Below are positions 1 through 31,589 of a stretch of DNA of 64,000 nt, in pieces. The notes below the pieces were generated by a model, which saw only the letters and a program-made list of their open reading frames with translations, searched no databases and had not been told where the DNA came from. The DNA comes from an uncultured Planctomycetia bacterium (GTDB lineage Bacteria; Omnitrophota; Gorgyraeia; 2-02-FULL-51-18): NCBI GenBank assembly GCA_964606485.1, contig CAZSGP010000001.1:161085-225084 (forward strand). The letters are read 5' to 3'. How positions within the stretch are numbered: position 1 is the first letter of the stretch; each line of letters opens with the position of its first letter. The position numbers and the translations under genes were made by a program.

Positions 1-839
1 CTCACTTGAAAGAGTGCTTGGACTCCGCGCTGGCCGCTACTCAAGTCTATGGAGCGGACTGCCCTGTGGTGGTGGTGGATAATTGCAGCAGCGATAACGA
101 CGTCGAAGTTATTCAAAAAAATTATCCGACGGTTGAAGTATTAAAAATGCCAAAAAATGATTACTTATTTTCTTATAACCAAGCGCTAGCGTCTCGAACG
201 GAGGACGTCGTTTTTCTCTTAAATAATGACATGCGTTACGACGCAGGATTTATTGCTTTCATGATTCGTCATTTTAAGGACGAGCGTGTCTTTGCTGTAT
301 CCGCAAAGACCATGGACTGGCATGGAGAAATGGTGCTCACAGCCCGCCGCACAGCAAGCATTAAAAATTTTTGGCTCGTAAAAAAATGGGAAGAGGCTGA
401 TGCGGCCATTGAAACATTTGAGTTTTGCGGAGGCGCTTGCGCGGTTCGTCGAGCTGTATTTTTGCAGTTGGGGGGCTTTGACCGGCTTTACTACCCGGGC
501 TACTGCGAAGATACGGACTTGAGCGCGCGAGCCCACAAAGCAGGGTGGAAGATTCTTTATGAGCCCCAAGCCATTATTTACCACAAAGCCAATGCGTCCT
601 TTCAGAAGAATTTTGCGGAGCGTGAGCTTGAATGTTTGATTCGGCGCAACGAAGTTTTATTTGCTGTAAAAAATGTTGGGAGCGCTCTTTTTGCGGCGGC
701 TTATCTTTTTCTACTTCCCATTAGAGCGCTTAGAAGTTATTGGAATAAAAATCTGCCGCTCGCTATTGGAATTCTTCGAGCGGCGCCATTTTTGCTAACT
801 GCATGGTGTAAACGTTTTGAGTGTAAATATGAAAAATAA
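1..839 (+). CDS. GT2-family glycosyltransferase (5'-truncated at window edge; reading frame open to position 1)
   Basis: Translated ORF has GT2 hallmarks: VVVVDNCSSD (nucleotide-binding D.D region), LLNNDM (DxD-like), GGACAVRRAVFLQLGGFD, YCEDTDLSARA. Listed ORF 'start' at 6 is a TTG; frame continues upstream of window. Confidence 0.75.
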   Translation, partial: HLKECLDSALAATQVYGADCPVVVVDNCSSDNDVEVIQKNYPTVEVLKMPKNDYLFSYNQALASRTEDVVFLLNNDMRYDAGFIAFMIRHFKDERVFAVSAKTMDWHGEMVLTARRTASIKNFWLVKKWEEADAAIETFEFCGGACAVRRAVFLQLGGFDRLYYPGYCEDTDLSARAHKAGWKILYEPQAIIYHKANASFQKNFAERELECLIRRNEVLFAVKNVGSALFAAAYLFLLPIRALRSYWNKNLPLAIGILRAAPFLLTAWCKRFECKYEK

Positions 840-1626
840 AATACTTTCGGGCATTCGGTTTGTAAGAATGGCATTCGAATTTTCAAACCCCCTGCAACTC
901 ATTGTAGAGAAAATTATGACGCGGGGTGTTTATCTAGCTTTTCAACATCATGAATATCGTTTATTTTCCTGCGAGATTCCTTGCTGGGATAGCGTGGCTA
1001 TTCGAGAGTGCCTGGTTGAAAAAGCGTATGACACAGCAATCAAAATGGCGAAACCCGCTAAGGGTCCAGGCAGCTACATCAATATCGGAGCCAATATCGG
1101 CGCGTTTGACGTGGCCGTGTACGAACAATGGGGCCGCGATGCGCGCGGCGTTTCGGTTGAAATGAATCCGTGGACGTGCGCGCGGCTTCTCAACAATATT
1201 TGCTATAACCAGCTTCCGGTTTGCGTGATCAACGCGGCGATTGCAGGTAAACCCGGCAAGATCAAAATCAATTTAAAAGAGAGCCACTCCGGGCAGTCTA
1301 TATACGACAAAGTTTCCGCTGAAACGAATACTGAAATTGAGGCGCTAACGCTTGCCCAAATCCAGAGCCCAGTCGCCGGAAAGGATATTGATCTATTGAA
1401 GGTGGACTGCGAAGGAGCCGAGTATGAGCTTTTTTTGGCGGCAGGTGCGCAGGATTTCAAAAGATTTAAGCATATTGTCATGGAGCTTCATGCACCCCCA
1501 TCTAGCGAATACACCAAAGAACAATTGATCGAGCACATTCAAAAAACCGGCGGGTACGAATCGATGCCGCTTAAAAATTCAAAAAACTCATTAATTTTTT
1601 TCACTAAAAAAAGCAGTGCTCAGTGA
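817..1626 (+). CDS. FkbM-family SAM-dependent methyltransferase (copy 1 of 5)
   Basis: NIGANIGAFDVAVYE (glycine-rich SAM loop) and LKVDCEGAEYELF (FkbM signature C/I-EGAE); overlaps upstream gene by 23 nt. Confidence 0.8.
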   Translation: MSVNMKNKILSGIRFVRMAFEFSNPLQLIVEKIMTRGVYLAFQHHEYRLFSCEIPCWDSVAIRECLVEKAYDTAIKMAKPAKGPGSYINIGANIGAFDVAVYEQWGRDARGVSVEMNPWTCARLLNNICYNQLPVCVINAAIAGKPGKIKINLKESHSGQSIYDKVSAETNTEIEALTLAQIQSPVAGKDIDLLKVDCEGAEYELFLAAGAQDFKRFKHIVMELHAPPSSEYTKEQLIEHIQKTGGYESMPLKNSKNSLIFFTKKSSAQ

Positions 1627-2771
1627 TAGGACGGCTCTACTATTTCTATTTATTCATGATACAGGCTCTAGAGGGGCTGGTTTGGTCGGTGGTATTGAAA
1701 GTGGGGAGGCATCGCAACCATCAAGCCGTGAGTTCGTTGAGGCTTGACGGGCCTGCGAGTATTTCTCTTTTCCATCAAGGAGGAATTGGGAATGGGATTC
1801 TCTTGTCGCCCATGCTTCAGACCTTGAGAGCCGTATATCCAAAATCTAAAATCACTCTTTTTTCGTGGCAGTCGCAGGAAGGGGAATTGCTTAAAGCGGC
1901 CGGACTTGTGGATGAGACTCGCGTGGTTTCAAGATCCGGTTTTTTAAAAAAACCGCAAGATTCTTATGACCTTCTCTTTTCAGCCGCAAGAACCCATGAG
2001 GGCGATAGGGTGGTGCGTCATATTCCGGCCAAGATAAAAATTGGGTTCCGGAAGGATTCGGGTTGGTTTGGACAAGGAGCGACTTATCACCACATTTCTA
2101 TTCCTATTACCGGCCAGGAGCATGAGGCGGCTGCAGATTACCAGTTGCTTAAGCCAATCATTTCGCCGTTACCAGCGATTCCCGAAACGCTGTTACCCGC
2201 GCGCTCAGAACTTTTATCTGCTCAAGCCAAGAAAAGAGGCGCTCCGCTCCGAATAGCGATACACCCGGGTTCGGAAAAAGTATCGGATTGGAAACGAGTC
2301 CCCACTCAAAAAATGGCGGAAGCAGGATCGCAATTAATGTCGGAGCTAGACGCTGAAATTGTGATCATTGCCGGTCCCGACGAAAAAGAGGAGGCGCTCT
2401 GCATTCAAAAAAGCATCGGGCAGAAGGCTGTGTTATTTGAGAGCACTAAAAATATACTGGATACATTTAAGCTTCTGCGTTCGGTGGATGTTTTGGTCAC
2501 CAATGATAGCGGGGTGATGCATTTAGCGGCACTGGCGCAGTGCCCCATCGCGGCAATCTTTGGCCCCACAAATGCTTCGATCTCAGGACCTTGGGGAAAC
2601 TCCTCCTCAACTCGCATCGTGAGCGCATCGCTTTGCTGCAGTCCCTGTTATCGGTTTTACAGTGGCTCGCTCCATTGCATTAATTTAAACAAGCGGGATT
2701 GTTTGGAAAAGATTTCTGCATCGCAAATTGTGAATGCTGTTAAAGATTTACTAGGGTTTTCAAAACAGTGA
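1623..2771 (+). CDS. GT9-family glycosyltransferase (heptosyltransferase-like)
   Basis: IAIHPGSEKVSDWKRVPTQKMAE... and C-terminal VLVTNDSGVMHLAALAQCPIAAIFGPT, which is the classic GT9 motif. GTG start in GTGA overlap with the upstream stop. Confidence 0.8.
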   Translation: MIGRLYYFYLFMIQALEGLVWSVVLKVGRHRNHQAVSSLRLDGPASISLFHQGGIGNGILLSPMLQTLRAVYPKSKITLFSWQSQEGELLKAAGLVDETRVVSRSGFLKKPQDSYDLLFSAARTHEGDRVVRHIPAKIKIGFRKDSGWFGQGATYHHISIPITGQEHEAAADYQLLKPIISPLPAIPETLLPARSELLSAQAKKRGAPLRIAIHPGSEKVSDWKRVPTQKMAEAGSQLMSELDAEIVIIAGPDEKEEALCIQKSIGQKAVLFESTKNILDTFKLLRSVDVLVTNDSGVMHLAALAQCPIAAIFGPTNASISGPWGNSSSTRIVSASLCCSPCYRFYSGSLHCINLNKRDCLEKISASQIVNAVKDLLGFSKQ

Positions 2772-3868
2772 ATCGATTAAAATTTATTCCCGCGTTGATT
2801 AAAATCGGGAGATGTCCTAATCCTCGAGATTTTGAAGAGAGTTCTGCCAGTTTACTAAAATGGATTCATTTGGCATTTGAAAAGAGTGGACAAGCGGGCG
2901 CTTCGTCTGGCTATCATTTGTCGGAGGGTTGGGGGAAGCCGTATCCGGAAATCACGGGCTATCTCATACCAACTCTGTTGGATTACCAGGAAATTGAGCT
3001 CGCAAAAAAAGCCGGCGCGTGGCTTGCTTCCGTGCGTTTTGAAAACGGGTCTGTTTGCCGCAAAGAATGGGAGCCGTCCAATAAAGTGCCAAGCGTTTTT
3101 AATACAGCACAGGTGATCAAAGGTTGGTGCGCGCTTTATGCGCAGACCGGAAACCCAATGTGGCTAAATGAAGCCAAAAAGTCTGCAGACTGGCTTTTGT
3201 CTTTGCAAAATGATGACGGAGTCTGGACCGAGCATACTTTTAATTCAGCGCCCCGTACTTATTATGCGTATGCTGCGAGCGCATTGGCGCTGCTCTGGAA
3301 ATTGAGCGGCAAAGCGGAGTATGCGCACAGCTCCAAAAAAAAGCTGAACTGGGTTTTGTCGCAGCAAGACAAAGACGGATGGTTTAAAAAAGCGGGTTTT
3401 AATGACGCGGAGCTGCCCAGCACGCACACCGCTGGTTATGTGCTGGAAGGATTGTTGGACGCAGGAGAAATTTTAAACGAAAACCGATATTTATTTAACA
3501 GTGAGATCGCGGCCTTTCGCTTGCTGGATGTTTATAACAAAAAAGGATTTCTTCCTGGGGTTATGGCTGCGGGATGGACCTCTAAAAGCAAGTCCCGCTG
3601 TTTAACGGGCGACGCTCAAATGGGGTTGGTGTGGGCAAAACTTGCCCTCAAGACCGGAGACCGCCGCTTTTTACAGGGAGCTACTCAAATAGCCAATGAC
3701 CTTCGAAAAACGCAGCGTATTCTTCCGGATTGGCCGCAGGTTTCAGGGGCCATTCAGGGTTCAGAGCCGCATTGGGGTGATTATGATGCGTTTCGATACC
3801 CAACACACGCATCTAAATTTATGCTGGATCTGCTCTTTAAGCTAAAAGCTTTGGAGAAAAAAAATTAA
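2768..3868 (+). CDS. alpha/alpha-toroid-like protein with QxxDGxW (QW-type) repeats (terpene-cyclase/prenyltransferase-like or AGE/GH-like fold), function unknown
   Basis: Repeated LQNDDGVWTE, SQQDKDGWFK motifs and hydrophobic/aromatic helical-hairpin spacing. No GT or MTase motifs. GTG start in GTGA overlap. Confidence 0.35.
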   Translation: MNRLKFIPALIKIGRCPNPRDFEESSASLLKWIHLAFEKSGQAGASSGYHLSEGWGKPYPEITGYLIPTLLDYQEIELAKKAGAWLASVRFENGSVCRKEWEPSNKVPSVFNTAQVIKGWCALYAQTGNPMWLNEAKKSADWLLSLQNDDGVWTEHTFNSAPRTYYAYAASALALLWKLSGKAEYAHSSKKKLNWVLSQQDKDGWFKKAGFNDAELPSTHTAGYVLEGLLDAGEILNENRYLFNSEIAAFRLLDVYNKKGFLPGVMAAGWTSKSKSRCLTGDAQMGLVWAKLALKTGDRRFLQGATQIANDLRKTQRILPDWPQVSGAIQGSEPHWGDYDAFRYPTHASKFMLDLLFKLKALEKKN

Positions 3869-3869
3869 A

Positions 3870-5228
3870 ATGAGAGTTTTATTTTTAGCGTTTGAATTTC
3901 CGCCGCTTTTGTCCGGAGGCGTTCACCGCGCAGTGAATTTAGCACAGCTCTTGCCCAAAAGGGGAGTCGAACTTCACGTTATCACCGCGAGAAGCGAGGA
4001 TTACCCCGCGTGGTCTAGTGCTTCGCTAGATACCCAACTCTTGGAAAGAATACCTCCGCAAGTTACGGTTCATCGTGTTCCTTACGGATTTCCGTCATGG
4101 TACTGGAAGGCCATCAAAAACCCAGTCTCAGACTATTTGCTGCGATGGATTTTTTTAGGGGACCCGCTTTCATTTTTTTGGAGAAAGCCGCTTTTAGAGA
4201 CGCTCGACCGATTAACCACTGAAAAAAAATTTGATGTTCTGCTTGCGACCGCACCTCCATTTGGCATTGCCAGTCTTGCCCGCACAGTGGCCAGGCGGTA
4301 TAAACTGCCCTGGGTGATGGACTGGCGCGATCCCTGGAGTCTTTGGCTGAGCAATCCCTTTACGTCGTATTTGCATTATCAGGCCGTGCGCGCGGCGGAG
4401 AACCGTTGCTTTGAAGAGGCTTGTTTCTCGGTGGCAACGTCTCCGGTGACGCGTCAGCATTGGACGCACTATTTTCCTAAGGCAGATGCCGAGAAGATGA
4501 AAGTTGTTTACAATGGTTTTGATTCGGATGATTTGAAGCGAGCGCTTGAAAATTTAAAACCCACTTCGTCAGAAAAAACACGCATTGTTCACGCCGGCAG
4601 TTTTTATTACCAGCCAAAGCCCGCTAAAAAAAAATGGCCGCACCAATTTCTGCACTACACGCCGCGGCACGAGGACTGGCTTTACCGTTCACCCTATTTT
4701 TTCTTGAAAGGATTGAGGCACCTTTTAGACCAAAAGCCTTTTTATGCGCAACAATTGGAAATTATTTTTGCGGGCCAAACGCCAAACTGGCTGATGCAGA
4801 TGATTAGCGATTTTAAATTGGGGGAAACCGTGCGTTTAATCGGCCCTTTACACCATCATGAGGCCATAGCGCTTGAGAAGGGGGCTGATGCCCTGCTTCT
4901 CACCGGAGCCAAAGTTCCTGGGGGAGATTACAGCATAGCGGGAAAAACGTTTGAATATTTTGGACTTCAAAAAAGAATTCTGGCAGTTGTAACGGACGGC
5001 GCGATGAAAGATTTGGTTGTTCAATCGGGTTTAGGTTCGATAGCAAGCCCCGATGACAGTCAAGCCGTTGCTGATGCAATCGAGTACCAAATTAAAAATA
5101 AAAATAAAATTCTGGTCTTAACACAGACTCAACAAGAATTTATTGCTTCAATGAGTGCTGACGCGATGGCCGATAAGATGGCTGATCTTTTATGCCGAGC
5201 GGCTAGGCAAGAAGGAGTGCGGGCATGA
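3870..5228 (+). CDS. GT-B fold glycosyltransferase (GT4-like N-terminal domain)
   Basis: N-terminus MRVLFLAFEFPPLLSGGVHRAVNLAQLL (typical GT4 N-domain 'F.P..GG'); Rossmann-like C-terminal half. Confidence 0.6.
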   Translation: MRVLFLAFEFPPLLSGGVHRAVNLAQLLPKRGVELHVITARSEDYPAWSSASLDTQLLERIPPQVTVHRVPYGFPSWYWKAIKNPVSDYLLRWIFLGDPLSFFWRKPLLETLDRLTTEKKFDVLLATAPPFGIASLARTVARRYKLPWVMDWRDPWSLWLSNPFTSYLHYQAVRAAENRCFEEACFSVATSPVTRQHWTHYFPKADAEKMKVVYNGFDSDDLKRALENLKPTSSEKTRIVHAGSFYYQPKPAKKKWPHQFLHYTPRHEDWLYRSPYFFLKGLRHLLDQKPFYAQQLEIIFAGQTPNWLMQMISDFKLGETVRLIGPLHHHEAIALEKGADALLLTGAKVPGGDYSIAGKTFEYFGLQKRILAVVTDGAMKDLVVQSGLGSIASPDDSQAVADAIEYQIKNKNKILVLTQTQQEFIASMSADAMADKMADLLCRAARQEGVRA

Positions 5229-6055
5229 AAAAATGGTTAGCCGAAAATAAGGCCTTAGCGCTGGCACGTTTATTGCCGGCGGGCATTCGAAGGAGACTGC
5301 TTCCGCGGTACCCACTAGAAAAATCAGTTATCTCGTCTGCTTTGCCGGACGGAGGGAAGCTAAAATTTTTTTACGACGAGTCGGACGTATTGCAGTCCAT
5401 GGTTTGGGGCAAAGGTTATGAAACTGAAACGGCTGATTTTATCTTTGAAAAAAGTAAGTCCGCGAGGGTGATGATAGATGTGGGCGCCAATGTTGGTTAC
5501 CACAGCTTGCTAGGCGCGTTATCCTCTAGAGAGATTCAGCTATTTTCGTTTGAGCCACATCCGGCGTTGTTCGCAAGGCTCGTTGAAAACATTGCACTGA
5601 ATGGTCTGGAGAGCCGTGTGCACGCTTGCTGTTGTGCGGTCAGTCATGAAGAGGGGGAGACGCAGTTGTATGCTCCAAAAAGCAAAATTTTATCAGAGAC
5701 TTCTATTGTAAAAGAATTTCGCAGCGATGCAGAGGTGATGAATTGTCGTGCTCAGTCGCTAGATCGATTTGTTGAGGAAAATAAAATTAGCGGGACGGAT
5801 TTAGTCAAAATTGATGTCGAAGGAGCCGAGGGTTTGGTTCTAAAAGGCATGCGATCTCTAATGAAAAAGGAGAAGCCAGACATTATTTGTGAAGTCCTTC
5901 CGGGCCGCTTTGCCCCAGAAACGCAGAGCCTATTAGAAGAATACGGTTACCGGTTCTATTGGATTACGGGGTCAGGCCTTGTAAGTAAGCAGACTATCGA
6001 GGGGGATAGAAATTATCGGTATCAAAACTTTTTTTTTACGACAAAACATCTTTAG
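5225..6055 (+). CDS. FkbM-family methyltransferase (copy 2)
   Basis: IDVGANVGYHSL and VKIDVEGAEGLVL motifs; ATGA overlap with upstream gene. Confidence 0.8.
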   Translation: MKKWLAENKALALARLLPAGIRRRLLPRYPLEKSVISSALPDGGKLKFFYDESDVLQSMVWGKGYETETADFIFEKSKSARVMIDVGANVGYHSLLGALSSREIQLFSFEPHPALFARLVENIALNGLESRVHACCCAVSHEEGETQLYAPKSKILSETSIVKEFRSDAEVMNCRAQSLDRFVEENKISGTDLVKIDVEGAEGLVLKGMRSLMKKEKPDIICEVLPGRFAPETQSLLEEYGYRFYWITGSGLVSKQTIEGDRNYRYQNFFFTTKHL

Positions 6056-6079
6056 TTTGGTTGGGTTGAGGAGATCAGC

Positions 6080-7630
6080 ATGAATCAAAGGAGTGAACGG
6101 GGTTGGCTGCTAGGGATCTTCGTTTTAGCAGTTGCATTGCGATGGGTGGCGTTTTCCGGGGTTTTTGGGTCCGATGATCTCATTTTCTCGAAGCTTGCCA
6201 CCAAAATGGCCAGCGGTTCCTGGAAAGCGGTGGATCCAAGTGATAGCCCTATTATGAAAAACCGCCTTGGATTTATCGTGCCGGTGGCGGCATCCATAAA
6301 ATGGATAGGCGTTAATGAATGGGGGATTTCGTTCTACCCATTTTTAGTCTCAATTCTGGGGGTTCTCCTAGCGTTTGTAGCCGGAAAATCTTTTTTTGGA
6401 CCAAAAGCCGGATTGATTGCAGCGCTGCTTCAGGCGCTACTTCCGATTGATTTGCAGTTAGCCAGTCAGTGCTTGTCAGATTTGCCCGCAGCTTTTTATT
6501 CCAGTATAGGAATTTTTCTAATGTACCGTGCGTGCGTGAGTGCTTCGCGTCAAAAAATACTAAGCGCTCTAGCGGGAATGAGTTTTGGAATCTCGTACTT
6601 AAACCGAGAGAACGTGGTTTATATGATTCCGTTGGCCGCAGGGATGCTGTATTGGGCTTGGAGGCTCGGACGAAAGAACGTCATTTTCTTTTTTATCGCC
6701 GCATTCGGCGCCGTCGGACTTTTGGAAGCGACGTATTATCACTGTTTCACCGGGGATGCTTTTTATCGCTATCACGTTACGGAAAATGTTTATTTTGCAC
6801 GCTACTCCGACCCTTCCGCTAAGTTTGACCCTAGTCGGCCCACACACGGATTTTTCTTTTTTCCAAAAAGAAGCGAATTTACCGGTAGCAGCGCGCAGTA
6901 TTTCATGATTCTAGCTAAGCGCATTTTTAAAGAGGGGCCGCAGCAAATATTCATGAGCTGGGACTATATATACATTCCTTTGGTCGCCGCGATCGGTGCT
7001 TTTTATGCAGGTTTTCGTCGGTTAAAGCCATTTTATTTTCCAGTGATTTGGTTTATTTGGTCCGTTGCAGTTTATAATTTTGGTTCTAGTAGTTTGAAGG
7101 AATATCAACCATTAGCTGTGGCGCCGCGTTATTTTTACCCGCTAGTTTTTCCAGCCATTCTTTTAACGGGTGGTTTTTTGGATAGGCTTTTTTCGCGTGG
7201 GTCGATTTTGGATTCCGACTGGCGTAAAGAGCGTTTCTTCTGGGGAACTCTTTTAGGCGGTCTGATGTGTTGTGTATTTAGCTTGGCCTTTATTTCTACT
7301 CTGCGGTCGGTGCCATACGGGCAATTTGAAAAAAAAGTGAGCAAGGTTTTAAAACCTTCCGACCTGATTTACACAGACTCTAAATCGCCGGACACACTTG
7401 AATTTTTTTGGGGTTATCCGTCTAAAATGAATTTTTTTGAATTTTCAAAACAAAGCTCGGAAAGCATTCCCGAGGGCGCTTATATTTTAATCAACGAGAA
7501 TAAGCTCGCTTATTTATATGGGTACTATCGAAAGTCATACCCTGAATTTTACGGGAAGATTCCTTTGGATTGGAAAGTAATTTTAGAAATACCCGGTAAA
7601 GGCGCAGTCTACAAAAAAGGGAGCGTTTAA
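6080..7630 (+). CDS. Polytopic GT-C glycosyltransferase, GT39/GT83-like (PMT/ArnT family; uses polyprenyl-phosphate-sugar donors)
   Basis: N-terminal RGWLLGIFVLAVALRWVAFSGVFGSDDLIFSKLA (first TM plus DD/DE loop typical of PMT/ArnT-type GT-C); ~11 predicted hydrophobic segments. Good SD (GAGGAG) 7 nt upstream of the ATG. Confidence 0.65.
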   Translation: MNQRSERGWLLGIFVLAVALRWVAFSGVFGSDDLIFSKLATKMASGSWKAVDPSDSPIMKNRLGFIVPVAASIKWIGVNEWGISFYPFLVSILGVLLAFVAGKSFFGPKAGLIAALLQALLPIDLQLASQCLSDLPAAFYSSIGIFLMYRACVSASRQKILSALAGMSFGISYLNRENVVYMIPLAAGMLYWAWRLGRKNVIFFFIAAFGAVGLLEATYYHCFTGDAFYRYHVTENVYFARYSDPSAKFDPSRPTHGFFFFPKRSEFTGSSAQYFMILAKRIFKEGPQQIFMSWDYIYIPLVAAIGAFYAGFRRLKPFYFPVIWFIWSVAVYNFGSSSLKEYQPLAVAPRYFYPLVFPAILLTGGFLDRLFSRGSILDSDWRKERFFWGTLLGGLMCCVFSLAFISTLRSVPYGQFEKKVSKVLKPSDLIYTDSKSPDTLEFFWGYPSKMNFFEFSKQSSESIPEGAYILINENKLAYLYGYYRKSYPEFYGKIPLDWKVILEIPGKGAVYKKGSV

Positions 7631-11408: not shown

Positions 11409-11440
11409 ATTTTATTCAAAAATTAGTATAATCTTGTCTT

Positions 11441-24154: not shown

Positions 24155-25662
24155 ATCAGCTTATCACGAAAAAAGTCTCACAAAATGAATTAGCCTGGGT
24201 TTTTTTTATTTTAACCTCGTTTCTTTTTATAAATTTCATCACGTCCGCTTATTCCCCAATTCCTTGGTATGACGAAGTGTTCTATACAAGCCCCGGGGTA
24301 AATTTGTATCTGGGGAAGGGATTTACTTCCGCTGCGTGGCCGGGTTGGAGCGCCGAAAATTTTTGGGCGGCTTACGTCCCGCTTTACCCGCTTCTTTTGT
24401 GCGTATGGCTTAAAATTTTTGGCTTTGGAATTATGGCAGCGCGGTCCATGAATTATTTCTTTGCGGTTCTAATGGGTCTTTTGCTGTGGTTCTCATCCCT
24501 GCGTTTTCAATGGATTCATAAGGCGCATGGACGGGTCATTTTTCTAGCCGCTATGCTATTTAATTTTGATGTCGCTCTCAGCTACCGCAGTGGACGTCAG
24601 GACGGCTTGGCAATGCTTTTGGCTTCCATGGCACTTTTTTCGCTATCTATTCATCGGAAGTGGATTCGATACACAGCCCTTTTCTTGGTCTCTATTCTTT
24701 GCATGTGGACACAGTTGCCGCTGGCGGTTTATGGCGTAGTCCTCGGATTTTTATTCATGCTGATTTTCGACCGGCGGTTTTTTGCTGAATACGTAATTAT
24801 GATCATTGGTTTTTTTGCAGGTTTTTTTCTGGTTCTAAAATTTTATAGTTTTTTTGGAGAAGCCGATGCATTCATGCAGTACAACAACCGCTATATTTTC
24901 TGGGGCCAGAATATTTTAAGCAAATTTCAAAACTTTTACATCGAATTTCCGCCGCCCGGTTCGCTCATTTTAGCGGGAGGTCTCATATTGTTTTTTATTT
25001 TTGCAAAAAAATATTTTTTAGATTTTCATTTGAGACTTATTATTTTCGGCTTTTCTTCGAGTATTATTGTTCCTCTCTCCATGCATTTTGCCGGGCACTT
25101 CCACCAATTTTATTATTGGTTGATTTTTGCGCCTCTCGGGGTTTGTGCGGGGATTCTGGCGTTTGACACGCATTTCTCTCATCATAAAAAATTTCAAAGA
25201 ATTTTGATTGCGACTCTGATCCTCACAGTCGCTACGGGCCTTCCGACGCGACTGGGATTAATGGCGATTGAGAAAGAGTCGCGCGATCACTCGAAGGTGG
25301 AAAAATTTGTGAATAACCACATCGCCGAAAGCGATACGGTTTATGCGGATCTCTTGGTTTATTATGCGGTGAAGAAAGTCTCCAAGGAAGCTTATATGAG
25401 CACCTACACTTTAAACCAGGAAGAGTCGAAAAAAATCGATGTCATGGTGATCCGAACGGATAATTTCATGAAAAATTTTATGCGCTTTAGGGGGCACTGG
25501 AAACTTGTGGGACGTTTTGAAGCGCCGTCTTCTTGGAGCGGTCGCATGAGAACGGGCGGAAAAATTTATAATGTTCCAAAATACCGTTTAGCCATTTACC
25601 GACGATACGACTCCTTGCAGCCCGAGACCAAATATTTTGATCCCGAAGGGAGCGCGCCTTGA
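24151..25662 (+). CDS. Polytopic GT-C glycosyltransferase, GT39/GT83-like (second PMT/ArnT-family member)
   Basis: YSPIPWYDEVFYTSPGVNLYLGKGF (the first-loop DE motif of PMT-type GT-C) and more than 10 hydrophobic segments. GTG start in GTGA overlap. Confidence 0.6.
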   Translation: MNQLITKKVSQNELAWVFFILTSFLFINFITSAYSPIPWYDEVFYTSPGVNLYLGKGFTSAAWPGWSAENFWAAYVPLYPLLLCVWLKIFGFGIMAARSMNYFFAVLMGLLLWFSSLRFQWIHKAHGRVIFLAAMLFNFDVALSYRSGRQDGLAMLLASMALFSLSIHRKWIRYTALFLVSILCMWTQLPLAVYGVVLGFLFMLIFDRRFFAEYVIMIIGFFAGFFLVLKFYSFFGEADAFMQYNNRYIFWGQNILSKFQNFYIEFPPPGSLILAGGLILFFIFAKKYFLDFHLRLIIFGFSSSIIVPLSMHFAGHFHQFYYWLIFAPLGVCAGILAFDTHFSHHKKFQRILIATLILTVATGLPTRLGLMAIEKESRDHSKVEKFVNNHIAESDTVYADLLVYYAVKKVSKEAYMSTYTLNQEESKKIDVMVIRTDNFMKNFMRFRGHWKLVGRFEAPSSWSGRMRTGGKIYNVPKYRLAIYRRYDSLQPETKYFDPEGSAP

Positions 25663-27410
25663 ACATTCTAGGCCTCAACGCTTTTCACGGAGATTCATCT
25701 GCCTGTCTCGTGGTGGACGGAAAACTTGTTGCGGCGGCCGAAGAGGAGCGTTTTCGGCGCGTTAAGCATTGGGCTGGATTTCCCAAGGAAGCCATTGCGT
25801 ATTGTTTGAGAGAAGGTGGAATTTCTTTAGCAGAGATCGATAAAATTGCTATTAATCGCAACCCGAACGCGAATCTCGCCAAAAAATTTTTGTACGCGGC
25901 CTTGCATCAACCGAGCTTCCATAGTGTCTATGGCCGCATTTTAAACTCCGCCAAATTGAAACGGATCGATCTTCTAACTGCAGCCGCGCTTGGAGTGGAT
26001 CCAAAAATTCTGAAAAATAAAATTGTTCACGTCGAGCATCACCGGGCGCATCTAGCGAGCGCTTTTTTTGTTTCGGGTCTTGAGCAGGCCGCACTCGTAT
26101 CGGTAGATGGTTTTGGCGACTTTGTGAGCACCCAGTGGGGCACGGGGCATCATTCTCAGATTACCGTTAGAGATCAGGTTTATTACCCGCATTCGCTTGG
26201 GATTCTCTATTTGGCGTTGACGCAATTCTTAGGATTTCCTCACTATGGAGATGAGTACAAGGTGATGGGCCTTGCTCCTTACGGAAAGCCGGTTTATCTA
26301 GATCAAATACGAAAATTAATTCATCTTAAAAAGAATGGGTTATTTGAGCTAAATCTGGAATATTTCACGCATCACTCAAAAGGCGTTTCGATGAGCTGGG
26401 AGGATGGGCAGCCCGAAATATCTCCGGTATTTTCTGACGCGCTTGAAAAATTATTTGGACCGGCGAGGCTGCCTAGTGAAATGATTGCACCCGTTCACGA
26501 AGATATAGCGGCCTCTCTCCAGGCTGTCTATGAAGAAGTTTTTTTTCATCTGTTAAATTACGTGCAGAAAAAAACAGGGCTTAAGAATTTGTGTCTAGCC
26601 GGTGGTTGCGCCATGAACAGCGTGGCGAATGGGAAAATTTATCAGAAGACTCCTTTCGAAAAAATTTATGTGCAATCGGCTGCGGGTGATGCGGGCGGAG
26701 CGATTGGCGCTGCGTTTTACACAAGCCATCAACTTGAAAAGACAAAGCCTTCATTTGTAATGGATCATGCTTATTGGGGCCCTGAGTTTAGCGCAGAAGA
26801 AATTTTTCAGCAGCTCGATATTAAAAGGCGAGAGATTGAAAAAGAAAATTGTGTCATTAAAAAAATTGACTCTCAAGCGGATCTGTGTCGGTTGGCGGCT
26901 CAAGCCATCATTGAAGGGAAGGTCGTGGGTTGGTTCCAGGGGAGAATGGAGTGGGGACCGCGCGCCTTGGGAAACCGCAGTATTTTGGCCGATCCTCGGC
27001 GCGGCGATATGAAACAAATTTTAAATTCTAAAATCAAACACCGCGAATCTTTTAGGCCCTTTGCGCCTTCTATATTAAGAGAAGAAGTTAAGAATTGGTT
27101 TGAAACCGACGACGATGTGCCCTTTATGCTGGAAGTGTTTCAAATTAAAGCGGAGAAGCGAGCGCTCGTTCCGGCTGTCACCCATGTGAATGGCTCAGGT
27201 CGCCTTCAAACGGTGTCCTCATCGCAAAACCCTCTTTATCATGCGCTGATCACAGAGTTCTATAAAAAAACCGGCGTGCCCATGCTTCTGAATACCTCTT
27301 TTAATGAAAACGAACCGATGGTTTGCCGGCCCGAAGAAGCGCTAGATTGCTTTTTGAGAACAAAAATGGATGTTTTGGTTTTAGGTCATTTCTGCCTTGA
27401 GCGATTTTAA
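25659..27410 (+). CDS. O-carbamoyltransferase (NodU/CmcH family)
   Basis: MNILGLNAFHGDSSACLVVDGKLVAAAEEERFRRVKHWAGFP is the canonical N-terminus of NodU/CmcH carbamoyltransferases. TTG start in TTGA overlap. Confidence 0.85.
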   Translation: MNILGLNAFHGDSSACLVVDGKLVAAAEEERFRRVKHWAGFPKEAIAYCLREGGISLAEIDKIAINRNPNANLAKKFLYAALHQPSFHSVYGRILNSAKLKRIDLLTAAALGVDPKILKNKIVHVEHHRAHLASAFFVSGLEQAALVSVDGFGDFVSTQWGTGHHSQITVRDQVYYPHSLGILYLALTQFLGFPHYGDEYKVMGLAPYGKPVYLDQIRKLIHLKKNGLFELNLEYFTHHSKGVSMSWEDGQPEISPVFSDALEKLFGPARLPSEMIAPVHEDIAASLQAVYEEVFFHLLNYVQKKTGLKNLCLAGGCAMNSVANGKIYQKTPFEKIYVQSAAGDAGGAIGAAFYTSHQLEKTKPSFVMDHAYWGPEFSAEEIFQQLDIKRREIEKENCVIKKIDSQADLCRLAAQAIIEGKVVGWFQGRMEWGPRALGNRSILADPRRGDMKQILNSKIKHRESFRPFAPSILREEVKNWFETDDDVPFMLEVFQIKAEKRALVPAVTHVNGSGRLQTVSSSQNPLYHALITEFYKKTGVPMLLNTSFNENEPMVCRPEEALDCFLRTKMDVLVLGHFCLERF

Positions 27411-27481
27411 TCAGAGATCCCTAAGACCGTATTTTATGGGTAGGGTATTTATCGGGTTTCACTGGCCACCTGGCGATTAAG

Positions 27482-28195
27482 ATGAAACTGTCCATTATTA
27501 TTCCCACGTATAACGAAGAAATGACGATTGAGGAGCTTGTTTCCTTGGTGCAAAGCGTCAAGTATCCCGTGGAGTATGAAATTATTATCGTGGATGACGC
27601 TTCGATCGACCGCACATTCGAGAGGGAGATTATGCTAAAGCTCAGGGATCAATCCGAGCAAATCCGAATTTTTAAAAATCAAATCAACCGCGGTAAAGGT
27701 TTTTCGGTGCGCAAAGGGATTCGAAGGGCCAAGGGCGACATCATCATCGTTCAAGACGCTGATCGCGAGTACGATCCGCGAGAAATTCCAAAACTGATCG
27801 AGCCGATCTTGAAAGGAGCCGAGCAGGTTGTGTATGGCAGTCGATTTATGACTTCTTCTCGTCCGAGGGGGATGGCATTTGCGAATCGATTTGCGAATCA
27901 GTTTTTGACGATGCTGACCAATTGGATGTTTGGTTTAAAGCTGACGGATATGGAAACGTGCTACAAGGCGATTCGAGCAGATTTGTTAAAAAGTCTACCG
28001 CTCCAAGAAAATCGATTTGCGTTTGAGCCGGAAATCACCGGGCTACTTGCGCTTAAGCATGTTCCGATTATGGAGATGCCGATTTCTTATTCGGGAAGAA
28101 CTTCAAAAGAAGGAAAAAAGATTAAAGCGGTTGATTTTTTATTTGCGATATGGGCGCTGGTCCGGTGCAGGTTTTGGAGCGGGTTAGGAGATTAG
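27482..28195 (+). CDS. GT2 polyprenyl-phosphate sugar synthase (DPM1/ArnC-like), second copy
   Basis: MKLSIIIPTYNEEMTIEE, IIVQDADREYDP (DxD). Confidence 0.75.
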   Translation: MKLSIIIPTYNEEMTIEELVSLVQSVKYPVEYEIIIVDDASIDRTFEREIMLKLRDQSEQIRIFKNQINRGKGFSVRKGIRRAKGDIIIVQDADREYDPREIPKLIEPILKGAEQVVYGSRFMTSSRPRGMAFANRFANQFLTMLTNWMFGLKLTDMETCYKAIRADLLKSLPLQENRFAFEPEITGLLALKHVPIMEMPISYSGRTSKEGKKIKAVDFLFAIWALVRCRFWSGLGD

Positions 28196-29404
28196 ATGAA
28201 AGTTATTTTCGTGAACCGCTATTTTTATCCGGATATTTCCGCGACCAGTAAAGTGGTCTCGGATCTCGCAATGGGTCTTGCGCAAAAAGGGTTGAAGATT
28301 CACGTGGTGACAAGCCGCCAAAGACTGGATGAGCCTTCAGCGAAATTAGCATCTCATGAAATTGCACACGGTGTTCACATTCATCGGGTTTGGAGCAGTT
28401 CATTCGGCCGATCCAATCTTCTGCTGCGTTTTTTTGATTACCTTACGTTTTATGGGTCTGCGTTCTGGAAGCTCATGTGGATTGCAAGTTCAAAGGACGT
28501 GGTGGTGGCCATGACGGATCCACCACTCTTGTCTATTGCGGCTATGGAAGCTGTGTTTTGGAAAAGAGCAAAGCTTATCAACTGGAACCAAGATCTTTTT
28601 CCGGAAGTAGCTGAGAAGCTTGGTTTGAGGATTGTTCGAATGCTGAGCCCATTTATAAAACCCCTTCGAAACCTGTCTTTAAAATTTGCCACTAAGAACG
28701 TGGTTATTGGCCAGGCCATGGGATCGCGTCTTTCTGCGTGCGGAGTTGAGCGTAGCAAGATCGAGCTTATTTTTAATTGGGCAGACGGAGAAAAAATCAA
28801 ACCTGTTGAGGCAGCGTCTAACCCTCTGCGGAAGCAGTGGGGTTTTGAAGGCAAGTGGGTGGTGGGGTACTCGGGAAATATGGGTCGCGCGCATGAATTT
28901 GAAACTATCTTGGACGCGTCCGGTGATTTGATAAATCGAGAAGATATTGTTTTTTTGCTCATTGGAAACGGTAAAAAAAGAGAATGGCTTGAAAATGAAG
29001 TCAAACGCAGAAATTTAAAAAATGTTTTTTTTAAACCCCTTCAGCCTGATGAAACCTTGGCGCTGAGTTTGGGGGTGAGCGATATTCATTTGGTGACACT
29101 GGAGCCGAGTCTAGAAGGCTTAATTGTTCCGAGTAAGATTTATGGGATTTTGGCGGCGGGGCGTCCGACGATTTACGTCGGGGATACCCAGTCAGAGATA
29201 TCTGAACTGCTTGCTACGCATCACTGCGGCGCTTCGGTTTCTCGTAGCGATTCCAAAAAATTGGCGAGTCAAATCTGTGCATGGGTGTCCGACCGTGATA
29301 TATTAAGTCAGATGGGTCGCAATGCGCGTCATGTTTTTGAGGAGAAATTCGATAAGCCGTTGGCGCTAGCCCAATGGGCGGCTTTAATTAGGAACGTTCA
29401 ATGA
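28196..29404 (+). CDS. GT4-family glycosyltransferase (WcaI/WbuB-like)
   Basis: MKVIFVNRYFYPDISATSKVVSDLAMGLAQKGLKIHVVTS is the characteristic N-terminus of this GT4 subgroup. Confidence 0.8.
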   Translation: MKVIFVNRYFYPDISATSKVVSDLAMGLAQKGLKIHVVTSRQRLDEPSAKLASHEIAHGVHIHRVWSSSFGRSNLLLRFFDYLTFYGSAFWKLMWIASSKDVVVAMTDPPLLSIAAMEAVFWKRAKLINWNQDLFPEVAEKLGLRIVRMLSPFIKPLRNLSLKFATKNVVIGQAMGSRLSACGVERSKIELIFNWADGEKIKPVEAASNPLRKQWGFEGKWVVGYSGNMGRAHEFETILDASGDLINREDIVFLLIGNGKKREWLENEVKRRNLKNVFFKPLQPDETLALSLGVSDIHLVTLEPSLEGLIVPSKIYGILAAGRPTIYVGDTQSEISELLATHHCGASVSRSDSKKLASQICAWVSDRDILSQMGRNARHVFEEKFDKPLALAQWAALIRNVQ

Positions 29405-30576
29405 GCGAAACGTTTGTTGTTGCGATTTTAAATTTAAGTGTGTTTGCGATGGCTGCAGTCATCTGCTATGGCATCACATTTGGTTTGAGAAGTGTATCTT
29501 ACCGCCTGGATCTTCTCGACTATCCATCGGAACGAAAAATTCACAAAGCGCCGATGCCGTTTCTCGGAGGATTAGGTCTTTTTATTTCGTTTTGGTTCGT
29601 GGTGTTTACCGGATTTTTATTTTGTGTTGTGCTGGGCCCGCGGCTGAGCATTACCCAATGGGGTCACTCGTATCAAATATTGCAGGGAGCTCTTGCAATT
29701 TTTCCAAAAATTCTATGGATCTTTATTGGAAGTTTAATTATTTGGTCGGTCGGAATTTTGGATGATAAGTTTTTATGGTCGCCGATTAAAAAATTAATCG
29801 GGCAGATCGTTGCGGCGTTTATTTTAATTGATTTAGGCCTGACCATTAATCTTGTGAGCAGTTTAGGGTTCCTAGGGTATCTAGCAACGTTTATTTGGAT
29901 TCTTTTGATTATTAATGCTTTTAATTTTATCGATTCACTGGACGGACATTGTGCTGGAATCGCTTTTATTTCGTGCGGCATTTTTTTCTGGATTACTCAA
30001 ATCATCGACCAGACGCTAGTGGGATTTTTTCTAGTGGCATTTGCAGGGTCGTTGTTCGGATTTTTGCCGCATAATTTTAAGCCAGCTAAAATTTTTCTAG
30101 GGGACAATGGCAGCTTGCTGATCGGCTACATGATGGCGGCATTTACACTGCTCTGCCGCTACCAGTCTCCCCAAACACCGCATTTAATCACGGTGTTTAT
30201 CCCGGTGCTTGTTTTCGGGGTTCCCATTTATGATACGTTGTCGGTGGTGGCGGTGCGGCTTCTGAGAGGCCAAGCTCCATGGAAAGGGGACCGCAATCAT
30301 TTTGCGCACCGGCTTGTCAAAATTGGAATGAGCGACAAGGTGGCGGTTGTGTTTTCGTATTTCATCGCCTTTACCCTTGGCCACGTTGCTTTACTCATGA
30401 CCCAGGTGGACTGGTTCGGCGTGTTCATCATTGCTATTATTTTTATGTCGATTATCGGAATGATCGCCTTCCTTGAGTTTTATATCGCGCAGCGCGCCAA
30501 AATCTCTGAATCTCTCGCCAAAGAAAACCGTCGGCGCCGCGAGGACATCCGGGGCTTTGAAAACGACGTTTTTTAA
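29401..30576 (+). CDS. Polyprenyl-phosphate sugar-1-phosphate transferase (WecA/MraY superfamily), initiating enzyme
   Basis: NAFNFIDSLDGHCAGIA (the NxxNxxDGxDGL motif of the MraY/WecA family) and about 10 TM segments. Confidence 0.8.
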   Translation: MSETFVVAILNLSVFAMAAVICYGITFGLRSVSYRLDLLDYPSERKIHKAPMPFLGGLGLFISFWFVVFTGFLFCVVLGPRLSITQWGHSYQILQGALAIFPKILWIFIGSLIIWSVGILDDKFLWSPIKKLIGQIVAAFILIDLGLTINLVSSLGFLGYLATFIWILLIINAFNFIDSLDGHCAGIAFISCGIFFWITQIIDQTLVGFFLVAFAGSLFGFLPHNFKPAKIFLGDNGSLLIGYMMAAFTLLCRYQSPQTPHLITVFIPVLVFGVPIYDTLSVVAVRLLRGQAPWKGDRNHFAHRLVKIGMSDKVAVVFSYFIAFTLGHVALLMTQVDWFGVFIIAIIFMSIIGMIAFLEFYIAQRAKISESLAKENRRRREDIRGFENDVF

Positions 30577-31586: not shown

Positions 31587-31589
31587 ACA

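Follow-up and report, generated by a model that had tools for sequence, protein, structure and literature searches.

A methyltransferase-rich surface-glycan gene array in an uncultured bacterium, probably of the Omnitrophota

Does a long block of glycan genes carrying five FkbM-family methyltransferases build one heavily methylated cell-surface glycan? The question is raised by a first-pass annotation of the 64,000-nucleotide stretch of DNA analyzed here (the window), which described an exceptional, single 30-kb block and a hydrophobic glycan with most of its residues methylated and/or carbamoylated. Our analysis finds a fairly ordinary bacterial surface-sugar cluster with unusually many sugar-methylating enzymes, the high methyltransferase count being due to genes that this strain has gained in addition to a conserved core.

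The same-strand array at window positions 6-30576 contains 29 tightly packed genes (Table 1). From one gene to the next the spacing is -47 to +71 nt, most neighbors overlap, and the genes are laid out as one operon would be, in agreement with the operon-like arrangement first described. The single block, by contrast, could not be upheld: the left edge of the window cuts the first gene, and the array continues for at least 9 kb upstream (in L002), without change of strand or spacing. This upstream part adds four glycosyltransferases, three further methyltransferases and an ABC ATPase that is Wzt-like and extended at its C-terminus (Wzt_C match not significant, E = 0.1); C-methyltransferase, aminotransferase, ATP-grasp and GT2 genes are among its contents. 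What the window shows is therefore the right-hand and larger portion of a long, operon-like array, probably from an Omnitrophota bacterium, in which a single initiating transferase is visible, encoded by the final gene.

Table 1. Genes of the array, in window coordinates, with the profile, structural or homologue evidence for each assignment
Feature	Position	Strand	Status	Evidence
GT2 glycosyltransferase, N-terminus outside window	6..839	+		PF00535 45.1 bits; full length 292 aa in L002
FkbM1 methyltransferase	829..1626	+		PF05050 50.6, TIGR01444 71.6 bits
GT9 a (heptosyltransferase-family)	1623..2771	+		PF01075 61.2 bits
Cytoplasmic (alpha/alpha)6-barrel carbohydrate-active enzyme (hydrolase or epimerase)	2768..3868	+	core	AF2 + Foldseek
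GT4 a	3870..5228	+	core	PF13579 + PF13439; 49% identical to L083
FkbM2 methyltransferase, RfbT-like	5225..6055	+		PF05050 72.5, PF05575 28.0 (cut-off 27.9), TIGR01444 105.1 bits
GT-C (PMT_2/ArnT-like), polytopic	6080..7630	+	insertion	PF13231 40.5 bits; hydrophobic segments; absent from L083
Class-I SAM methyltransferase a	7630..8319	+	insertion	PF08241 44.7 bits
GT2, likely polyprenyl-phosphate sugar synthase	8306..9061	+	insertion	PF00535 62.3 bits
UDP-GlcNAc 2-epimerase WecB	9058..10167	+	core	TIGR00236 323.9 bits (cut-off 210), PF02350 357.6 bits
GT4 b	10164..11408	+	core	35% identical to L083
GFO/IDH/MocA oxidoreductase, WbpB-like (UDP-GlcNAc 3-dehydrogenase type)	11441..12466	+	core	PF01408 99 bits
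Hexapeptide sugar N-acetyltransferase, WbpD-like	12466..12951	+	core	PF00132 84.2 bits
Extended SDR nucleotide-sugar epimerase, dehydratase or decarboxylase	12948..13934	+	core	PF16363 185.4, PF01370 168.5 bits
GT4 c	13888..15210	+	core	55% identical to L083
FkbM3 methyltransferase	15207..15968	+	insertion vs L083	PF05050 53.1, TIGR01444 85.9 bits
GT4 d	15961..17085	+	core	PF00534 117 bits
Wzy-type homologue, polytopic (~9 non-overlapping hydrophobic segments)	17076..18500	+	core	hydropathy; relatives' Pfam matches
FkbM4 methyltransferase	18497..19342	+	core	PF05050 73, TIGR01444 78 bits
GT9 b	19343..20374	+	core	PF01075 81.6 bits; 43% identical to L083
GT4 e	20371..21516	+	core	PF00534 110.7 bits
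FkbM5 methyltransferase	21500..22216	+	low-GC insertion	PF05050 73.9, TIGR01444 79.9 bits
Class-I SAM methyltransferase b	22203..22961	+	insertion	PF13489 44.3, PF08241 41.8 bits
GT4 f	22958..24154	+	core	PF00534 114.3 bits
503-aa polytopic membrane protein, possible second GT-C	24151..25662	+	insertion	homologue evidence
NodU/CmcH-family O-carbamoyltransferase	25659..27410	+	core	Carbam_trans_N PF02543 218 bits, Carbam_trans_C PF16861 249.3 bits
GT2c, likely polyprenyl-phosphate sugar synthase	27482..28195	+	insertion	PF00535 109.7 bits
GT4 g, WcaI-like	28196..29404	+	core	NF007640 165 bits (cut-off 276)
WecA/MraY-family polyprenyl-phosphate HexNAc-1-phosphate transferase, initiator	29401..30576	+	core	PF00953 104.2 bits

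All five FkbM assignments stand, with scores above both profile cut-offs (PF05050, 50.6-73.9 bits against 22.7; TIGR01444, 71.6-105.1 bits against 37.7). Of the second motif reported for all five, only K-x-D-x-E-G is invariant; the literal pattern fails in FkbM3 (GSA ending), FkbM4 (KLD) and FkbM5 (DIE). Pairwise identity among the five is 20-32%, closer kin occur in other loci for FkbM1 (46%), FkbM3 (35%) and FkbM4 (59%), and the genes are old, divergent lineages rather than recent duplicates. FkbM1 shares 41-46% identity with FkbM genes of L083 and L091, FkbM2 just reaches the Pfam cut-off for RfbT and is missing from the same position in L083, and FkbM4 keeps its place directly after the Wzy-like gene in L083, L084, L089 and L090 (57-60% identity). 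The GC content of FkbM5 is 0.379, against 0.43-0.49 in every other gene of the array.

The two class-I methyltransferases and the carbamoyltransferase of the first-pass annotation are likewise supported by Pfam matches. The carbamoyltransferase, 61-62% identical to its L083 and L085 counterparts, scores 159 bits against the NodU equivalog, far under the cut-off of 1000. Signal peptides are absent from all of the methyltransferases and the carbamoyltransferase, as are membrane segments, bar a weak C-terminal hydrophobic stretch in class-I methyltransferase b, so that decoration of an undecaprenyl-linked glycan on the cytoplasmic side is a reasonable prediction. Every FkbM or class-I methyltransferase gene lies directly behind a transferase gene, mostly overlapping it. 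The model of the (alpha/alpha)6-barrel protein (pLDDT 95.9) matches GH88, GH76, CPF_2247 and cellobiose/glucose 2-epimerases (TM 0.6-0.72); some of its homologues carry fused GT4 domains, and in an ENA relative a 50%-identical homologue is encoded immediately upstream of the GT4 a counterpart.

Summed by class, the window holds 15-16 transferases, matching the ~16 first estimated, and about 20 are counted with the upstream part. Neither GT9 protein comes near any of the heptosyltransferase equivalog cut-offs. The top NCBIfam matches of the GT2 at 8306-9061 (AglJ and dolichyl-P-hexose transferase) and of GT2c (AglJ, ArnC, PpgS and dolichyl-P-hexose transferase) all lie under their cut-offs; the former enzyme is likely to supply the donor for the GT-C enzyme. 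For the 503-aa protein the Pfam search returned no match and hhalign against the local PMT_2 gene was not significant; D41-E42 is invariant across 49 relatives, four of which match PMT_2, and the protein is suggestive of a second GT-C. The WecA-like initiator (95 bits against TIGR02380, under the cut-off of 326) is 57-58% identical to its L083 and L085 counterparts. The Wzy-like protein, 44-47% identical to those of the same two loci, has no direct Pfam or NCBIfam match, and its AF2 model (pLDDT 92.4) gave no PDB match with Foldseek; 17 of 57 relatives match PF14296 and seven PF01901. Connected through homologues of homologues only, it may be a remote homologue of Wzy-type polymerases. No transferase or methyltransferase of the array reaches an equivalog-level cut-off, so that sugars, linkages and sites of methylation cannot be assigned.

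The sugar-precursor genes previously listed are also present. The WbpB-like product has UDP-GlcNAc 3-dehydrogenase as its top NCBIfam match (143.9 bits, cut-off 450; 68% identical to L083), the WbpD-like product scores 84 bits for the NeuD/PglB/VioB subfamily (78% identical to L083), and the extended SDR, 81% identical to L083, stays below NCBIfam equivalog level. In L085 a DegT aminotransferase comes after the WbpB/WbpD-like pair.

Comparison with related loci explains the composition of the array. L083 has 17 collinear genes in common with it (30-81% amino-acid identity), most of which are also found in L085 and a 38-kb ENA contig, and these approximately 17 genes make up a collinear core in common with other uncultured genomes, which are most likely Omnitrophota. 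The collinear core starts only at 2768/3870, and the first five genes of the window lie outside the L083-collinear segment, the 41%-identical relative of FkbM1 being elsewhere in L083; the order GT9-GT4-GT4-carbamoyltransferase is kept. Relatives that share the core carry 0-2 FkbM genes. Missing from L083 are FkbM2 with the PMT_2, methyltransferase and GT2 genes, FkbM3, FkbM5 with its methyltransferase, the 503-aa protein and GT2c. The array is thus a mosaic of conserved core and insertions, the extra methyltransferases and GT-C/GT2 pairs being strain-specific. Antigenically variable surface-glycan loci usually gain genes in this way. The relatives also share the chromosomal site, with a secretin module, a Y1-transposase-like gene and a giant ORF downstream; the named best matches of the secretin are almost all Omnitrophica/Omnitrophota. 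The giant product is a repeat-type protein with a signal peptide (12.3% Thr, 8.7% Ser), pilins are also encoded a few kb downstream, and between the glycan locus and the giant gene lie several unrelated genes and a strong terminator-like hairpin (40563-40595).

Two sets of loci served for a comparison of FkbM density: 33 from metagenomes, each 12 kb or longer and with a homologue of the Wzy-like gene, and 80 from genomes, each surrounding a homologous carbamoyltransferase. The former hold no FkbM gene in 23 cases, one in six, two in three and three in one; the maximum among the latter is three. The array has five over 22 kb and three within the same +/-10 kb span, and the word exceptional is only partly justified: over equal lengths of DNA its FkbM density reaches the highest values observed without exceeding them.

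On balance, we think it probable that the product of the array is one or more cell-surface heteroglycans linked to polyprenyl diphosphate, and infer the following substrates and order of steps. The WecA/MraY-type enzyme would load HexNAc-1-phosphate onto undecaprenyl phosphate, and WecB, the WbpB-like and WbpD-like enzymes and the SDR would provide sugar nucleotides of ManNAc, 2,3-diacetamido or related types for chain extension by cytoplasmic GT4, GT9 and GT2 enzymes. With the chain still on the cytoplasmic face, the soluble FkbM and class-I enzymes would O-methylate particular residues and the NodU/CmcH-type enzyme would add a carbamoyl group, and the (alpha/alpha)6-barrel enzyme may trim or epimerize the chain. 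After export, the Wzy-type protein would polymerize or transfer the unit, and in this strain two extra modules, each a GT2 polyprenyl-phosphate sugar synthase with a GT-C, may attach side residues at the outer face. The Wzy-dependent route of export and polymerization is incomplete as seen, because no Wzx/MOP flippase, Wzz or Wza/OPX gene was found in the window, the 9 kb upstream or the relatives. Seven O-methyltransferases stand against 12 Leloir transferases (three GT2, two GT9 and seven GT4), the initiator and 1-2 GT-C enzymes, and it therefore does not follow that most residues are methylated: if each enzyme acts once, about one methyl group per two residues would be expected at most, and the earlier wording is an upper bound. 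Some FkbM enzymes, moreover, methylate no more than the end of the chain, RfbT of V. cholerae O1 being an example (PMC9929944). The hydrophobic character first ascribed to the glycan is a conjecture.

A normal repeat unit needs far fewer than 15-16 transferases, a number that points to a very long unit or to two or more products. It is possible, if on the whole doubtful, that the locus is composite, with methyltransferases spread over several glycans, none heavily methylated: an ABC-transporter-dependent polymer made by the upstream genes (Wzt-like ATPase, C-methyltransferase, aminotransferase, ATP-grasp and GT2s) and a Wzy-type glycan made by the core. The content of the upstream part, a transferase total too high for one repeat unit, the late start of the core and the non-collinear first five genes all fit such a division, which is opposed by the unbroken strand and spacing, the single visible initiator, the insignificant Wzt_C match and the lack of a Wzm permease up to where the sequence ends. 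Transfer of the glycan, or part of it, to protein rather than lipid A or capsule appears improbable. The PMT_2-type GT-C enzyme, or else the Wzy-like protein, would act on the Thr/Ser-rich secreted giant protein or on pilins. PMT_2 is the protein O-mannosyltransferase family, the giant protein has a signal peptide and much Thr and Ser, and glycan locus, secretin module and giant ORF occur in the same order in three genomes. However, adjacency by itself is weak evidence, the hairpin and unrelated genes intervene, the PMT_2 gene is a strain-specific insertion, and relatives of the Wzy-like protein match Wzy polymerase families, not Wzy_C O-oligosaccharyltransferases.

Known systems offer two further comparisons. 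The inner core of Pseudomonas aeruginosa is a carbamoylated, heptose-containing core oligosaccharide, and the GT9, GT4 and carbamoyltransferase genes could be likened to a pathway for such a core rather than for a polymer. The two GT9 genes and the gene order kept in L083 would suit it; we nevertheless hold it to be very improbable, since the GT9 scores are far under all heptosyltransferase equivalog cut-offs, ADP-heptose synthesis, Kdo transferase and lipid A genes are absent from the locus, and a WecA-type initiator and a Wzy-type protein belong to its core. We also regard as unlikely, to a lesser degree, that several FkbM enzymes act solely on an adaptor or on the terminal sugar at the non-reducing end, for capping or chain-length control of a glycan lightly methylated overall. 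Capping would not call for as many as two class-I and five divergent FkbM enzymes, every one of which has a different transferase gene as its partner, and FkbM4 is kept beside the Wzy-like gene in several relatives with no recognizable Wzt nearby; the Wzt-like ATPase upstream and the RfbT match of FkbM2 are consistent with it. Its models are terminal methylation in ABC-transporter-dependent O-antigens and RfbT of V. cholerae O1. RfbT caps the chain end, and its methylation of the O-polysaccharide defines the Ogawa serotype (PMC9929944). For the polyprenyl-diphosphate-linked heteroglycans that we favor, RfbT is equally the precedent for FkbM-type O-antigen methylation (PMC9929944).

According to the ORF listing and base composition, the window holds, from its left edge up to position 30576, one unbroken series of genes on the same strand, with junctions ranging from -47 to +71 nt and most genes overlapping, by 1-17 nt. 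Pfam and NCBIfam scans bear out the enzyme inventory of the first-pass annotation for this series, but not its confinement to 30 kb, since the array runs on for at least 9 kb past the left edge. All credible genes of the 64-kb window lie on the + strand and GC skew is positive throughout (cumulative skew rises); scans of the window returned neither tRNA genes nor Rfam matches.

Features of the glycan array and its downstream neighbourhood, in window coordinates
Feature	Position	Strand	Evidence or remark
FkbM methyltransferases (FkbM1-FkbM5)	829-1626, 5225-6055, 15207-15968, 18497-19342, 21500-22216	+	PF05050, TIGR01444
Class-I SAM methyltransferases (n = 2)	7630-8319, 22203-22961	+	
NodU/CmcH-type carbamoyltransferase, two-domain	25659-27410	+	PF02543 218 bits, PF16861 249.3 bits
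GT2 Leloir glycosyltransferases (n = 3)	GT2b 8306-9061, GT2c 27482-28195	+	
GT9 Leloir glycosyltransferases (n = 2)	GT9b 19343-20374	+	PF01075 61 and 82 bits
GT4 Leloir glycosyltransferases (n = 7, GT4a-GT4g)	3870-5228, 10164-11408, 13888-15210, 15961-17085, 20371-21516, 22958-24154, 28196-29404	+	
PMT_2-type GT-C	6080-7630	+	PF13231 40.5 bits (cut-off 26.1); hydrophobic segments
WecA/MraY-family initiator	29401-30576	+	PF00953 104.2 bits
Sugar-precursor enzyme, WecB	9058-10167	+	equivalog level
Sugar-precursor enzyme, GFO oxidoreductase			best match UDP-GlcNAc 3-dehydrogenase (NCBIfam)
Sugar-precursor enzyme, NeuD/PglB-type hexapeptide acetyltransferase			
Sugar-precursor enzyme, extended SDR	12948-13934	+	
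Wzy-like protein, 474 aa	17076-18500	+	
Polytopic membrane protein, 503 aa	24151-25662	+	
(alpha/alpha)6-barrel protein, 366 aa	2768-3868	+	
GldA-like ABC ATPase, fused GldF-GldG permease/auxiliary (815 aa), DUF4340 protein	30639-35059	+	
MSHA/T2SS-like module: AAA_22 ATPase, T2SSC-like protein, secretin, TPR/coiled-coil protein	35447-39925	+	secretin 36987-38786
Terminator-like hairpin	40563-40595	+	15-bp stem and T-run
Y1-transposase-like gene, 411 aa	40674-41909	+	IS200-like Y1 transposase domain
Giant ORF, at least 7,040 aa	42881-64000	+	continues past right edge

The carbamoyltransferase carries both the Kae1/ASKHA-like N-terminal and the YrdC-like C-terminal domains of the NodU/CmcH family, and falls well short of the NodU equivalog (NF041651, 159 bits vs a cut-off of 1000). 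The initiator likewise scores below the ECA WecA equivalog (95 vs 326 bits), and neither GT9 gene matches the WaaC, WaaF or WaaQ equivalogs (best 63.7 and 85.2 bits vs a cut-off of 134.6). Because none of the transferases and methyltransferases matched at equivalog level, neither sugars nor linkages can be specified. Signal peptides are absent from every methyltransferase and from the carbamoyltransferase, the sole predicted membrane segment among these proteins being a weak C-terminal hydrophobic stretch in the second class-I methyltransferase.

The five FkbM ORFs were not reassigned to other families, as all score above the curated cut-offs of PF05050 (50.6-73.9 bits, cut-off 22.7) and TIGR01444 (71.6-105.1 bits, cut-off 37.7). 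Both G-A-x-x-G and K-x-D-x-E-G are invariant across their alignment, in keeping with the family SAM motif and the core of the second motif previously noted in all five; the strict form of that second motif, however, is not matched by FkbM3, FkbM4 or FkbM5. FkbM2 also reaches the family cut-off of RfbT (PF05575, 28.0 vs 27.9 bits). Solely from gene context and from RfbT (PMC9929944), we infer that these enzymes would O-methylate sugar hydroxyls. Every methyltransferase gene comes after one for a transferase, in most cases with its start codon overlapping the preceding stop codon, an arrangement that fits one methyltransferase per transferase step. Recent tandem duplication of the FkbM genes is rejected because they share just 20-23% identity when all five are aligned and no more than 32% in pairwise comparison. 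Closer relatives occur in other loci for FkbM1 (46% identity), FkbM3 (35%) and FkbM4 (59%), and in at least four other loci, too, FkbM4 comes directly behind the Wzy-like gene. The composition of FkbM5 (GC 0.379, GC3 0.372), far below that of the other array genes (GC 0.43-0.49), points to a probable recent foreign origin.

For the Wzy-like gene, the assignment to a putative Wzy-type protein is supported indirectly. Its product is polytopic, with approximately nine non-overlapping hydrophobic segments by hydropathy, and among 57 aligned and scanned relatives (of 75 found) 17 match PF14296 (Wzy polymerase) and seven match PF01901. The AlphaFold model of the protein (pLDDT 92.4, pTM 0.92) returned no Foldseek match in the PDB better than E = 0.67; either the predicted fold is missing from solved structures or Foldseek is blind to it. 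The 503-aa polytopic membrane protein, which has no direct family match, is a possible second GT-C: 857 relatives were retrieved from 1.84 billion representatives, a first-loop Asp-Glu pair (D41-E42) is invariant across 49 of them, and four of those 49 match PMT_2. Profile comparison of this protein with the local PMT_2 gene (hhalign) was not significant. The 366-aa protein is predicted to fold as an (alpha/alpha)6 barrel (pLDDT 95.9) whose nearest structures are GH88, GH76, CPF_2247 and sugar 2-epimerases, and fusions to GT4 domains occur among its homologues; most likely, it is an enzyme that trims or epimerises the glycan in the cytoplasm. None of these three proteins matches a family directly, and PDB sequence searches with them gave nothing useful.

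The sequence of the window recurs on an 83-kb Logan contig (SRR12487046_619) and on a 546-kb NCBI contig, and the array goes on in the same strand through the 9 kb preceding the window (positions 1-9172 of the upstream-extended locus, L002). These encode, in order, a 413-aa ABC ATPase with a C-terminal extension (Wzt_C matching at E = 0.1, which is not significant), a class-I methyltransferase, a sugar C-methyltransferase (Methyltransf_13/14), an ATP-grasp enzyme, a second class-I methyltransferase, a DegT aminotransferase and, at the end, four glycosyltransferases; the fourth of these is the GT2 gene that is truncated at the window's left edge. This gene set suggests a branched, C-methylated, amide-substituted amino sugar as a candidate component. 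Array and upstream segment together hold ten methyltransferases and approximately 20 transferases, and the upstream extent is a lower bound, the sequence read starting at the ABC ATPase. For an ABC-transporter-dependent O-polysaccharide pathway, that ATPase would be a candidate Wzt, with the place for a Wzm permease lying further to the left.

Comparison with related loci separates a conserved core from a set of strain-specific insertions. The nearest relatives of the Wzy-like protein sit in loci of the same gene order. In one of these (L083, GCA_964642015.1), 17 genes are collinear with window positions 3870-30576 at 30-81% amino-acid identity, in the order GT4a, WecB, GT4b, GFO, acetyltransferase, SDR, GT4c, GT4d, Wzy-like, FkbM4, an FkbM1-like gene, GT9b, GT4e, GT4f, carbamoyltransferase, GT4g and WecA. 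The same order appears on a 38-kb ENA contig, where the barrel gene lies just upstream of the GT4a counterpart and an asparagine-synthase-like gene takes the place of the carbamoyltransferase. The locus of an Omnitrophica MAG (L085) comprises about half of the core and contains no FkbM genes, with MBOAT and AMP-binding genes instead. The gains of the window with respect to L083 are FkbM2 with the PMT_2 gene, a methyltransferase and GT2b (5225-9061), FkbM3, FkbM5 with a methyltransferase (21500-22961), the 503-aa protein and GT2c. GT2b and GT2c have polyprenyl-phosphate sugar synthases (e.g. AglJ, ArnC, PpgS) as best matches, and both have a GT-C or GT-C-like gene nearby; a polyprenyl-phosphate sugar synthase and a GT-C are the usual pair for outer-face side residues.

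The FkbM load of the array was gauged by running a profile built from its five genes on loci of comparable size. Among 80 genome loci, spanning 10 kb on either side of a 54-62% identical carbamoyltransferase, 25 contain at least one FkbM gene, with a maximum of three; these carbamoyltransferase relatives are spread across many phyla, and the combination with FkbM genes is a common one. A second set comprised 33 metagenome loci with a Wzy-like homologue, each 12 kb or longer; FkbM genes number zero in 23 of these, one in six, two in three and three in one. The window holds three within 10 kb on either side of the Wzy-like gene, and five within 22 kb. The locus had been termed exceptionally modification-rich in the first-pass annotation; the FkbM count does top the observed range, but it does not go beyond it. 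The literature searched yielded nothing specific on multi-FkbM O-antigen loci, carbamoylated O-antigens or Rhizobium etli O-antigen methylation.

In the pathway we propose, a glycan would be started on undecaprenyl phosphate by the WecA-type enzyme, assembled on the cytoplasmic face by soluble transferases, O-methylated and carbamoylated on the cytoplasmic side, exported and then handled by the Wzy-type protein, with GT-C enzymes presumably adding further residues on the outer face in this strain. No Wzx (MOP-family) flippase is present in the window ORFs, in L002 or in the loci of the relatives, nor is a Wzz/PCP chain-length regulator or a Wza/OPX exporter present in the window, in L002 or in those loci; the only secretin in the window is part of the MSHA/T2SS-like module. 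The extent of decoration can be bounded from the enzyme ratio, seven O-methyltransferases vs 12 Leloir transferases, the initiator and one or two GT-C enzymes, which corresponds to a ceiling of roughly one methyl for every two residues, provided that each enzyme acts once. RfbT, an FkbM-type enzyme, acts only at the chain end (PMC9929944), and the locus may make more than one product. For these reasons, the earlier proposal of a glycan with most residues modified is best read as an upper bound. The hydrophobic character suggested along with it is a prediction.

Between the WecA-like gene and the secretin module, and behind a 62-nt gap containing a promoter-like TTGACA-16-TAGAAT, sits the GldA/GldF-GldG/DUF4340 system. 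A role for this transporter as the core exporter is rejected, given that it is absent at that position in the two syntenic relatives. Both relatives do carry, 3' of the glycan locus, an AAA_22 ATPase, a T2SSC-like protein, a secretin and a TPR protein, followed by a Y1-transposase-like gene, a gene of approximately 250 aa and a giant ORF. Named best matches of the window secretin are almost all from Candidatus Omnitrophica/Omnitrophota (50-67% identity), which makes a source within this phylum likely. The terminator-like hairpin follows the 196-aa gene closing the secretin module, and is the only convincing terminator within 27-43.5 kb. In three genomes, the Y1-transposase-like gene comes after the secretin module and before the giant gene; this constant position suggests that it is resident, and possibly domesticated, and not a mobile insertion. 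The giant protein has a classic signal peptide (MAQAKHFKAKSFFATSLILAGLCLFFTADAHA/VQ), no further hydrophobic segment, no Pfam domain, a high content of Thr (12.3%) and Ser (8.7%), and divergent internal repeats of approximately 250-300 aa (24-40% identity); giant ORFs occupy the same position in the two related genomes. An earlier study of Omnitrophota describes giant genes with secretion genes ahead of them (bioRxiv 10.1101/2023.11.21.568195). It is conceivable, although we deem it improbable, that in one Omnitrophota clade a conserved functional group is formed by the glycan locus, the secretin module and the giant secreted Thr/Ser-rich repeat protein (more than 7,000 aa). The glycan, methylated and carbamoylated, would then be linked to the giant surface fibre or the pili, or be built jointly with them, and strain-specific gain of methyltransferases would tune surface chemistry for contact in ultra-small, possibly host-attached cells.

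If our reading is right, the locus ranks among the more richly decorated bacterial surface-glycan loci recorded so far, holding ten methyltransferases (counting the upstream part) and a carbamoyltransferase. To our knowledge, Omnitrophota have almost no cultured members and no glycan chemistry. The FkbM enzymes, five divergent proteins whose genes each pair with one for a transferase, would constitute minable sugar O-methyltransferases of differing specificity, and the core-plus-insertions layout provides a natural experiment on decoration-gene gain across related genomes. All components belong to known families and to a known kind of pathway; the locus does not indicate a new mechanism, and is notable for its decoration load and its lineage.

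Judged by its gene content, the locus would work like a WecA-initiated O-antigen/exopolysaccharide cluster with a WbpB/WbpD-type amino-sugar branch. The B-band wbp cluster of Pseudomonas aeruginosa is WecA/WbpL-initiated and Wzy-type, and makes 2,3-diacetamido sugars. The array shares with wbp-type clusters a HexNAc-1-P transferase, a WbpB-like and WbpD-like pair, a WecB/WbpI-type 2-epimerase, several GT4 enzymes, a putative Wzy-type membrane protein and the layout as a single same-strand array; a DegT aminotransferase, located upstream here, adjoins the WbpB/WbpD-like pair in L085. It differs in that Wzx, Wzz and WbpA are absent from the visible span, in its 15-16 transferases (vs 3-5), and in its seven methyltransferases, carbamoyltransferase, two GT9 enzymes, one or two GT-C enzymes and (alpha/alpha)6 enzyme. 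A different outcome, a cytoplasmic polymethylated polysaccharide of mycobacterial type, was also considered. The mycobacterial 3-O-methylmannose polysaccharide cluster consists of four genes (MeT1, pMeT3, ManT and MmpH), and its product is a heavily O-methylated, cytoplasmic, lipid-carrier-independent homopolymer (PMC9883506). Both systems bring together methyltransferases, glycosyltransferase and a cytoplasmic (alpha/alpha)6-barrel glycan-processing enzyme, but MmpH is not among the best 50 structural matches of the barrel protein, and this alternative is rejected in view of the GT-C enzymes, the putative Wzy-type protein and the membrane-bound initiator found here.

With regard to decoration, RfbT/WbeT of Vibrio cholerae O1 is an FkbM-related SAM methyltransferase encoded in the O-antigen locus that methylates the polysaccharide (PMC9929944). 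The FkbM-type enzymes of the array similarly reside in a glycan locus, FkbM2 reaching PF05575, although RfbT is a single enzyme capping terminal perosamine whereas the array has five mutually divergent ones. In rhizobia, the Nod-factor enzymes NodS, NodU/NolO and NoeI decorate a GlcNAc-based glycan in the cytoplasm. A class-I methyltransferase, a NodU-type carbamoyltransferase and an FkbM-family O-methyltransferase are present here too, whereas NodA, NodB and NodC genes are absent and the proposed substrate is a polyprenyl-linked heteroglycan rather than a lipo-chitooligosaccharide. By family assignment, the predicted decoration enzymes of the array are thus of the same families as RfbT, NoeI, NodS and NodU.
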